8,956 bases of DNA from a virus (lineage: Duplodnaviria; Heunggongvirae; Uroviricota; Caudoviricetes): the IMG/VR virus record IMGVR_UViG_2751185961_000010; one strand, written 5' to 3'. Positions 4,299 to 4,633 of the stretch are shown here, in pieces. A program made the translations under genes and the position numbers. Each line of letters starts with the position of its first letter. Position 1 is the stretch's first letter. The notes under the pieces are model-generated. The model did not search any database. It had not been told where the DNA came from and worked only from the letters and a program-made list of their open reading frames with translations.

Positions 4299-4633
4299 GT
4301 GCTTTCAAAGAAAACGCAGGTATTTTTCGCACAAACTTTTCTCGCAACACATCCGACCACTTAAGCAAAAAAGCGGCATATACTGAGGCTATCCCTTATA
4401 AAACGGGGATCGGGATTGGCCTCCCGCTGGAGTTAGAGGCGATACACGACGCGCCAGCGTCTTTTTTTGTATCGGCGCACACGCACACCTCAACAATGGT
4501 GGGCTGTATGGAACTTCCTTCGGGAAGGCTGGTTTCCTCTAACACCAGTAAGGCCAATTCCGTACAGTCCACCGCCAGCAAGATTGGCCTCTTGGGCGGT
4601 GGGTATAATCCCAAAGTCAGAGGAGCCTTTCAC
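4299..4633 (+). ncRNA. Candidate structured leader / small regulatory RNA upstream of the small-gene and helicase operon (P4 CI-like by position)
   Basis: About 330 nt with no convincing ORF. Direct repeats GATTGGCCTC at 4414-4423 and 4582-4591; complementary AGGCCAAT at 4551-4558; C(UUCG)G-type hairpin at 4514-4527; a second promoter-like TATAAT at 4604-4609 just before the first small ORF. Confidence 0.3.

Follow-up and report, generated by a model that had tools for sequence, protein, structure and literature searches.

A C4/CI-type antisense RNA module precedes the icd-like gene and primase operon of a P4-like integrative element

The stretch of DNA analysed here (hereafter the window) comprises 8,956 nucleotides of a virus of the Caudoviricetes (IMG/VR record IMGVR_UViG_2751185961_000010), and every gene in it lies on the plus strand. 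Between an uncharacterised gene and a small gene of the Icd family there is a region, 4299-4633, for which a first-pass annotation made from the letters alone had proposed an arrangement like the seqA, seqB and seqC elements of P4 RNA immunity. At this locus we find, in order, an IsrK/seqA-like leader RNA that holds two target sites and ends in an intrinsic terminator, a C4/CI-type antisense RNA with two specificity elements, and two more target sites, the last of which overlaps the Shine-Dalgarno (SD) sequence of the icd-like gene (Table 1). Positions 4391-4625 are very probably an RNA immunity module of an integrative satellite that is P4-like or resembles a phage-inducible chromosomal island (PICI).

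The family membership of the two RNAs was established with Rfam covariance models, which were run on the whole window against the curated (gathering) cut-offs. There are three matches above the cut-offs, and two of the three lie within 4299-4633. The C4 model (RF01695), whose family includes P1/P7 C4 and P4 CI, matches 4492-4579 on the plus strand over its entire length (positions 1-87 of 87) and scores 73.8 bits, where the cut-off is 45. The isrK model (RF01394) matches in full length at 4391-4467 on the same strand, barely above its threshold (52.1 bits against 50). The immunity region of the P4 genome was scanned with the same library, and there the C4 model falls on the CI RNA (8420-8507, minus strand, 74.9 bits) and the isrK model on seqA (8615-8692, minus strand, 60.8 bits). 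The order and orientation of the two matches agree between the window and P4 (seqA and CI), and the P4 layout is thereby shown directly for the window. The P4-like arrangement proposed in the first-pass annotation is thus borne out by these matches, in P4 as well as in the window, and by the co-variation described below.

Table 1. Features of the RNA module, of the genes around it in the window, and of the tandem cassettes in one related locus
Feature	Position	Strand	Description
Conserved promoter-proximal block	4345-4384	+	CAACACATCCGACCACTTAAGCAAAAAAGCGGCATATACT; ends in the -10-like TATACT (4379-4384)
IsrK/seqA-like leader RNA	4391-4467	+	Rfam isrK RF01394; two hairpins, spacer, intrinsic terminator
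Upstream target of single-stranded element	4415-4422	+	ATTGGCCT; exact 8-nt complement, inside repeat copy 4414-4423
Upstream target of hairpin-2 loop	4427-4439	+	CTGGAGTTAGAGG against CCTCTAACACCAG (4536-4548); 13 nt, 92% complementary
Intrinsic terminator	4448-4468	+	GACGC-GCCA-GCGTC (stem 4448-4461), then a run of 7 T; terminator scan
C4/CI-type antisense RNA	4492-4579	+	Rfam C4 RF01695; acceptor-like outer stem enclosing two hairpins
Hairpin 1 of C4-like RNA	4514-4527	+	CTTCC-TTCG-GGAAG; UUCG tetraloop
Loop of hairpin 2 (first specificity element)	4533-4544	+	UUUCCUCUAACA; hypervariable, complementary to both flanking targets
Single-stranded specificity element	4551-4558	+	AGGCCAAU (AGGCCAAT); between hairpin 2 and 3' strand of outer stem
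Downstream target of single-stranded element	4583-4590	+	ATTGGCCT; exact complement, inside repeat copy 4582-4591
Downstream target of hairpin-2 loop	4616-4624 (4616-4625 with the end of the SD sequence)	+	GTCAGAGGA; 8/9 complementary, covers the SD sequence
Icd-like gene	4634-4804	+	56 aa; NCBIfam NF033153 phage_ICD_like, E = 1.9e-14; first gene of putatively repressed operon
Overlapping small open reading frames	4797-4982, 4982-5185	+	From sequence
DUF4222 gene	5243-5536	+	Domain match
D5/P4-alpha-type primase-helicase	5533-5955 plus 5865-7361	+	Split by frameshift
SSB (ssb)	3' of primase-helicase	+	Window gene
Tyrosine integrase	85-1149	+	Window gene
AlpA	1792-1995	+	Window gene
Two Rha/Bro-type genes	2060-3305	+	Window genes
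Uncharacterised gene	3507-4274	+	Between Rha/Bro-type genes and RNA module
Tandem cassettes of locus L004, first	786-1668 (both cassettes)		isrK 786-862; C4 884-971; icd-like 1026-1214
Tandem cassettes of locus L004, second			c4-a1b1 1245-1294; C4 1362-1449; icd-like 1501-1668

The leader RNA has its hairpins at 4391-4410 and 4411-4426, and the first copy of a 10-bp repeat, GATTGGCCTC, is found in the loop of the second. The terminator stem agrees with the terminator stem of the isrK model. This terminator would release a short IsrK-like RNA, while read-through would give the C4 precursor and the mRNA; that read-through is partial is expected from Gifsy-1 IsrK (PMC4825925). A GCCTC...GAGGC hairpin noted in the first pass (4419-4423 with 4436-4440) is indeed predicted by RNAfold for the isolated leader, but it is not conserved, since a relative with 92% identity over the region (L049) reads CCACC there, and it is in competition with the hairpin that is conserved in the Rfam isrK model, CGGGA/UCCCG. 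When the whole leader is folded (4391-4645), the minimum free energy (MFE) structure has -107 kcal/mol (z = -5.3) and pairs 4411-4439 with 4536-4562 in cis.

The 88-nt C4-like RNA in isolation has an MFE structure that reproduces the consensus fold, at -40 kcal/mol and z = -5.4. Its outer stem is 17 bp long, hairpin 2 spans 4528-4549 with a loop of 12 nt, and the C(UUCG)G tetraloop hairpin already seen in the first pass is hairpin 1 of the C4 model. Among 13 homologues, compensatory changes are present in 11 of the 25 predicted pairs of the fold, including all four predicted stem pairs of hairpin 1. The sequence G-CCA (4574-4577) directly follows the outer stem, and its CCA (4575-4577) is kept in 11 of the 13. 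Since P1 C4 is described as a processed 77-base RNA (Citron and Schuster 1992, as cited in PMC8546580), the mature RNA of the window is predicted to extend from about 4498 to 4577 and to end in CCA.

We describe the specificity elements by their position and not by the names a and b of the P1 literature. The single-stranded element is unpaired in the Rfam C4 consensus, is hypervariable in homologues and co-varies with both its targets. AGGCCAAT has its sole copy in the window at 4551-4558, and its complement occurs only at 4415 and 4583. This is the octamer that had been proposed to pair with either copy of the direct repeat at 4414-4423 and 4582-4591; both the octamer and the repeat stand, and an unbiased repeat search finds the same repeat and, in addition, the complementary pair 4427-4439 and 4536-4548. 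The first-pass reading of one seqB-like element with two repeat copies is therefore correct in what it names but incomplete, since there are two specificity elements and four targets. The set that had been missed consists of the hairpin-2 loop, 4427-4439 and 4616-4624. The last of these sites overlaps the SD sequence GAGGAG (4620-4625), which lies eight nt before the ATG at 4634; the other downstream target is 30 nt upstream of the SD region.

Further evidence for the pairing comes from relatives. We collected 44 viral-contig loci that encode Icd relatives, and a covariance model built from 13 Rfam-confirmed copies yielded 41 plus-strand C4-like RNAs. A search by nhmmer with the single C4 sequence of the window had found only relatives of one class (module-a) and missed the copies of the other (module-b), and it was replaced by the covariance model. 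The 41 RNAs carry 18 distinct combinations of loop and single-stranded element, with the rest of the molecule conserved. Over 19 specificity variants from satellites, P1-like and Shiga toxin (Stx) phages and P4, the RNA and its targets change together. For 15 of the 18 combinations, each of the four sites carries an exact complement of 7-10 nt, and the spacing is constant on either side: upstream about 80 and 65 nt before the RNA, downstream about 2 and 34 nt after it, the last reaching into the SD sequence. In the other three (the window, the P1-like L003 and L025a), one or both targets of the loop element reach only 4-6 nt by this exact-match test, as does the downstream b-type site of L003, and the P1-like phage duplexes are completed only with G-U pairs. 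These three are also the exceptions at the SD target, where by the same test all other module-a and module-b relatives have perfect duplexes of 7-10 nt.

Duplex energies lead to the same result. With P4 included, the mean cognate energies at the four sites are -10.7, -10.0, -13.6 and -8.9 kcal/mol, compared with -6.0 to -7.1 kcal/mol for non-cognate combinations, and only 5-8 of about 300 non-cognate pairs per site, about 2%, match the cognate energy. Formal pair counts were restricted to nine module-a leaders; a joint alignment of module-a and module-b leaders was unusable for this purpose, as the two classes pair in registers one base apart. In these nine, the two upstream helices are 92.3% paired and 11 of 16 pairs have changed on both sides. 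These helices have a covariation score of 0.734; shuffles give 0.26, and sliding the partner by 1-3 columns gives 0.12 at most. Taken singly, the upstream helix of the single-stranded element (4415-4422) has 5 of 8 pairs changed on both sides (9 relatives), and the upstream loop helix (4427-4439) has 6 of 8 core pairs changed with 97% of cells paired. The downstream helix of the single-stranded element (4583-4590) has 89% of cells paired and 5 of 8 pairs changed. A single comparison illustrates this well: L049 has TTACCAC / GTGGTAA / TTACCAC where the window has TTGGCC / GGCCAA / TTGGCC, with the loop set unchanged. The two checks that the first-pass annotation had suggested, a covariance-model scan and an analysis of folding and covariation, are thus both positive. 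Since the antisense elements co-vary with their targets across relatives, the lack of conservation or of compensatory covariation that it had named as evidence to the contrary is not what is seen.

There are several points that weigh against our interpretation. The fourth helix, between the hairpin-2 loop and the SD target, is the least regular one. In the window and in L049 it has one internal mismatch (8/9), with GTCAGAGGA in place of the perfect complement GTTAGAGGA, and in the register of the window just 59% of its cells are paired across relatives. The low count arises because the window type is shifted by one base with respect to the others. The energy test covers this helix as well, and the loop/SD duplex of the window has -10.8 kcal/mol against a non-cognate mean of -6.6 kcal/mol. 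Moreover, the Rfam model c4-a1b1 (RF03163) stays under its cut-off at 4378-4430 (21.8 against 46.7 bits), where the isrK model covers the region instead; in module-b relatives its score reaches 46.8 bits. Further, TATACT has no recognisable -35 and a consensus scan is empty, so the strength of the promoter and the start site are uncertain. Finally, since the primase is frameshifted and an IS1 abuts the element, the module may sit in a decaying element with hardly anything left to control.

To judge from sequence conservation, the block at 4345-4384 is the likely promoter of the locus. It is almost invariant in L049, L050 and L051, while the sequence farther upstream has diverged. Its TATACT is aligned with TATGAT, TATATT or TATGCT in relatives, and the c4-a1b1 model positions that cover TATACT in the window cover TATAGT in P4 (in separate Rfam alignments). 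A sigma-70 consensus scan of 3900-5000 gave no promoter, and a -35 hexamer sought at 16-18 nt from TATACT was not found. That the block is almost invariant yet without a -35 suggests an activator-dependent promoter or a regulatory binding site. An apparent 6-nt deletion in the spacer relative to other lineages, seen with MAFFT, was discarded; it probably reflects unrelated upstream sequence, and a lineage-specific alignment shows a different conserved block. The extended -10 placed at 4290-4298 in the first pass is present in the sequence (TGTTATTAT), but it is not shared by L050 and L051, so it is not a conserved promoter. The isrK model was built on an RNA with a mapped 5' end and it begins at 4391. 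Thus transcription probably starts near 4391, and the leader, previously put at about 330 nt, is shortened to about 243 nt. Farther upstream, an exact 13-nt direct repeat, CGCAGGTATTTTT, is present at 4211-4223 and 4315-4327, 104 nt apart, with its copies flanking the end of the open reading frame (ORF) 3507-4274. A pair of protein-binding sites is one possibility; with only two copies, chance is another.

For the steps by which the module would act (transcription start, processing, translation block, involvement of Rho and biological outcome) we draw on work on P1, P4 and Gifsy-1. Transcription would begin near 4391, and a fraction of the transcripts would stop at the terminator 4448-4468 to give a short IsrK/seqA-like RNA. 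The read-through transcript would carry the tRNA-like C4/CI-type RNA, which may be excised to about 80 nt, with its 5' end generated by RNase P. Its hairpin-2 loop and its element at 4551-4558 would then pair with 4583-4590 and 4616-4624 on transcripts of the same locus. On the sequence evidence, it is the Icd-like gene whose ribosome-binding site forms the immediate target, as is the case for P1 c4-icd-ant and P4 kil/eta. Pairing over the SD sequence would block translation of the icd-like gene, and the untranslated first gene would expose the nascent RNA to Rho-dependent termination. For P4, the CI/seqA/seqC system and translation-dependent termination at kil/eta are described or cited in PMC4825925, PMC3632133 and PMC10111431. 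In this way the icd-like gene and the replication operon would remain silent, and repression would extend to an incoming element that has the same specificity. The upstream sites 4415-4422 and 4427-4439 may serve as a second target like P4 seqA or, as part of the short RNA, as a competitor for the antisense RNA. There are two published readings of such sites, namely a second target needed for immunity (P4) and a trans-acting activator as short RNA (Gifsy-1).

The second of these readings leads to a different view of the switch, in which the short leader RNA (4391-4467) is the main regulator, as for IsrK of Gifsy-1. The read-through mRNA would fold on itself into a silent form, with the leader targets paired to the C4-like elements, and the short RNA would open it in trans, so that the downstream genes are translated. 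This is possible, and we hold it to be rather unlikely; it would in any case be a component of the mechanism and not an alternative identity of the locus. The presence of an isrK model match with a terminator is consistent with it, as is the cis pairing in the MFE structure of the whole leader, which resembles helix b-I of Gifsy-1 structure A. For Gifsy-1, experiments show that short IsrK activates in trans and that a stable RNA made by processing, STnc1160, lies downstream of it (PMC4825925). However, the activator switch uses the same complementarities and is thus not exclusive of the antisense-repressor model. Further, co-variation with the C4-like elements is no less strict at the downstream targets than at the upstream ones, which is predicted by repression by the RNA and is not required by a pure activator model. 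The element type and gene order also match P4, where CI is the repressor and seqA its target (PMC3632133, PMC10111431). A combination of both RNAs in a toggle is more speculative, and we consider it improbable: the short leader RNA, with both upstream targets on it, would sponge the C4-like RNA, and the balance of termination and read-through would determine if the icd-like gene and the replication operon are switched on. That balance would depend on a helper-phage or element-encoded factor acting via the -35-less block 4345-4384, and the conserved AUGs in the C4-like sequence, usually in frame with icd, may add a translated isoform. If the toggle with its translated isoform were true, the Pfam family 'Ash' would be a real product of a dual-function RNA.

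The preferred reading, an antisense RNA repressing the icd-like gene, also has to be weighed against the view that the region encodes protein, either as ORF 4286-4804 or from the AUGs at 4496 or 4508 in the C4-like sequence, as an Ash-family protein or an N-extended Icd. The frame of icd is indeed open from 4244 to 4804, and the conceptual protein of 172 aa has a match to Pfam PF10554 (Phage_ASH) at residues 32-118, with E = 1.1e-8. RefSeq annotates 'ash family protein' coding sequences (CDSs) at the same position in relatives. In 18 of 22 loci, the AUG at C4 position 5 (4496) is in frame with icd with no stop between, and orf45 of Gifsy-1 is reported to be translated from equivalent AUGs (PMC4825925). 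However, residues 32-118 correspond to nt 4379-4639, exactly the RNA locus, which is what translating a conserved RNA gene would yield, and in P4 the same family matches the old "cI" ORF where it overlaps the CI RNA. The terminator lies inside ORF 4286-4804, and no SD sequence precedes 4286 or 4496. In 11 module-b relatives, the variable columns by codon position are 7/7/3 in the leader, 6/4/3 in C4 and 6/6/6 in the targets, against 13/11/24 in icd. Variation is concentrated in the two antisense elements and compensated in the targets. Read from GTG 4286, the frame meets stop codons 198-216 nt before the icd ATG in L001 (97.8% identical), L002 and L003, and in L042 it meets one 15 nt before this ATG. 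In L050, L023b, L033b and L042, 1-nt indels put the C4 AUG out of frame with the RNA features intact. Coding upstream of 4634 is therefore very unlikely, and the earlier judgement that 4299-4633 has no convincing protein agrees with the absence of a coding signature there. The small ORF at 4634, which had been taken as the first well-initiated one, has the Icd-like match, with the third-position excess seen only downstream of its ATG.

The annotation of this family deserves a comment. Phage_ASH or 'ash family protein' CDSs lie on isrK/C4 genes and their targets in P4 (L048, 8330-8521), L050 (270-650) and L051 (413-964), and in L049 a CDS of about 380 aa annotated as 'Icd-like' runs through the RNA locus. 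The Phage_ASH family thus looks like the conceptual translation of a conserved non-coding RNA locus, and RefSeq 'ash family protein' and over-extended 'Icd-like' CDSs that overlie RNA genes are to be read with caution.

The last alternative, a caveat raised in the first pass, is that the repeats arose by chance in an ordinary intergenic leader that is untranslated and holds no RNA regulator; it retains practically no probability. The individual repeats are just 8-10 nt long, and about 1% of shuffled upstream flanks contain one 8-nt match to the single-stranded element, but among 20,000 dinucleotide-preserving shuffles of the two flanks, with the C4-like RNA 4492-4579 held fixed, both 8-nt matches to AGGCCAAT occurred in 2 and all four target matches in none, and this reading is already refuted by the shuffles together with two curated covariance models above cut-off, the duplex energies, the pair counts and the three-way covariation over 19 variants.

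The genes around the module fit its assignment. The start equivalent to 4634 is the one annotated by RefSeq in E. coli O157, and Icd of P1 is a division inhibitor that targets FtsZ (PMC11897509). At 4797-4804 and 4979-4984 stop and start codons overlap, as would suit an operon whose expression requires its first gene to be translated, and by analogy with the P4 alpha operon we infer that the RNA module controls the downstream operon 4797-7361. The module lies upstream of the primase operon, in the same direction and in an integrase-bearing element, and the order in P4 is identical. This gene order is that of an integrated P4-like satellite or Gram-negative PICI. No sid, delta or psu is found among the ORFs of the 9-kb window, which ends in IS1, and there are Rha/Bro-type, DUF4222 and SSB genes instead. 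With Rha/Bro-type genes and ssb, and without sid, delta and psu in these 9 kb, the element resembles Gram-negative PICIs more closely than P4 itself. In 73 complete E. coli genomes, including many O157 and other Shiga toxin-producing strains, the RNA region recurs with 99% identity, and there the element adjoins yicC.

Some further observations concern the element and its relatives. The first 100 aa of ORF 5533-5955 have 74% identity to the N-terminus of a primase that is intact, with 608 aa, in E. coli ATCC 43889, a strain 99.3% identical to the window over 4230-4640. The remainder of the gene is in ORF 5865-7361 in another frame; this frameshift is a pseudogene or a sequencing error. The group II intron model D1-D4-4 (RF02003) matches 8560-8713, just after ssb, with 67.1 bits against 49. 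An IS1 end follows directly and extends from about 8700 to the window end at 8956, matching thousands of E. coli IS1 copies, and the intron-like piece may have been truncated by the IS1 insertion. Two or three cassettes are found in tandem in L004, L006, L009, L012, L019, L023, L025 and L033, and H71 has three Icd-like genes. Each tandem cassette contains upstream targets, terminator, C4-like RNA, downstream targets and icd-like gene, with its own specificity. The window has one cassette, in which a module-a RNA is joined to an icd-like gene of the module-b type, with the switch in similarity at the SD-overlapping target.

The RNA immunity module described here is an already known system, correctly recognised in the first pass. 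That IsrK equals seqA and C4 equals CI, together with the P4 mechanism, is found in PMC3632133, PMC4825925 and PMC10111431; Barquist et al. is one of the three papers that already cover the system, and Hershko-Shalev et al. 2016 (PMC4825925) draw the same link. Matches of both models to P4-like prophages and Gram-negative PICIs are already published. In particular, according to Mageeney et al. 2023 (PMC10111431) the profiles for C4 and isrK match Gram-negative PICIs in the Bro zone, which is the layout found here, and C4 and isrK are already among the Rfam-based annotations of E. coli O157 EDL933 (PMC5331693). The specificity pair UUUCCUCUAACA / AAGGCCAAU is one further immunity type and nothing new in kind. 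The module matters because the quiescence of a satellite or PICI-like element depends on this switch, as does its immunity type. The series of specificity variants, including the 92% identical relative in which the RNA and both targets have changed together, illustrates the evolution of hetero-immunity. The locus is also an example of a P4/P1-type module recognised by a reader without tools, from repeat logic alone, and then confirmed by tools.

The module was compared with three known systems. In the Gifsy-1 prophage of Salmonella (IsrK - STnc1160/orf45 - anrP), an IsrK-type leader with its own terminator is followed by a C4-like stable RNA, as in the window (PMC4825925), and a predicted long-range cis helix between leader and C4 is common to both. 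Stx2 phages have the module at 76% identity, and the record of phage F039 already annotates "isrK" and "C4 antisense RNA". Gifsy-1 and the Stx phages differ from the window in that the downstream gene is of the antirepressor type, and the published model is trans-activation by short IsrK, not repression.

The immI region of P1 and P7 (c4 - icd - ant) has the same fold, and its target overlaps the icd ribosome-binding site. P1-like phage-plasmids are the nearest sequence relatives outside the element family, with about 84-85% identity over 4399-4628. The immI region before icd in Punavirus is 84% identical to the module of the window, and an about 85% identical module lies on P1-like E. coli plasmids of about 95 kb (H55-H69; 130 plasmid matches). 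The equivalent of 4399-4628 in L003 is 2501-2727, and such P1-like immI regions are the nearest non-identical relatives. The single-stranded element of L003 is nearly the same (AAGGCCAA), while the loop differs, UUUCCUCUAACA in the window against UUACCUUGGACG in the P1-like phage. Since AAGGCCAA is common to the window and L003 and the loop is not, partial cross-talk between the satellite and a P1-like prophage that share a cell is conceivable. P1 and P7 control an antirepressor on a plasmid prophage, whereas small ORFs and a primase follow the module in the integrated satellite of the window.

P4 has several features in common with the window. In both, the module is flanked by an AlpA/Vis-type gene and a D5/alpha-type primase and the element bears an integrase; in both, two specificity elements match sites on either side, and the downstream ORF is of the Icd family (NF033153). 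BLASTP of the Icd-like protein of the window against the P4 ORF after CI gave no alignment, and their kinship rests on the shared NF033153 match. In the window, in P4, in a P1-like phage and in an Stx phage alike, 142 nt separate the start of the antisense RNA from the next ATG. P4 differs in that seqA lies about 100 nt further upstream of CI, and in that its promoter P_LE has TTGCCT, 18 nt and TATAGT, whereas the promoter of the window has no clear -35. The specificity sequences of the window and of P4 also differ, and thus the two would be hetero-immune.

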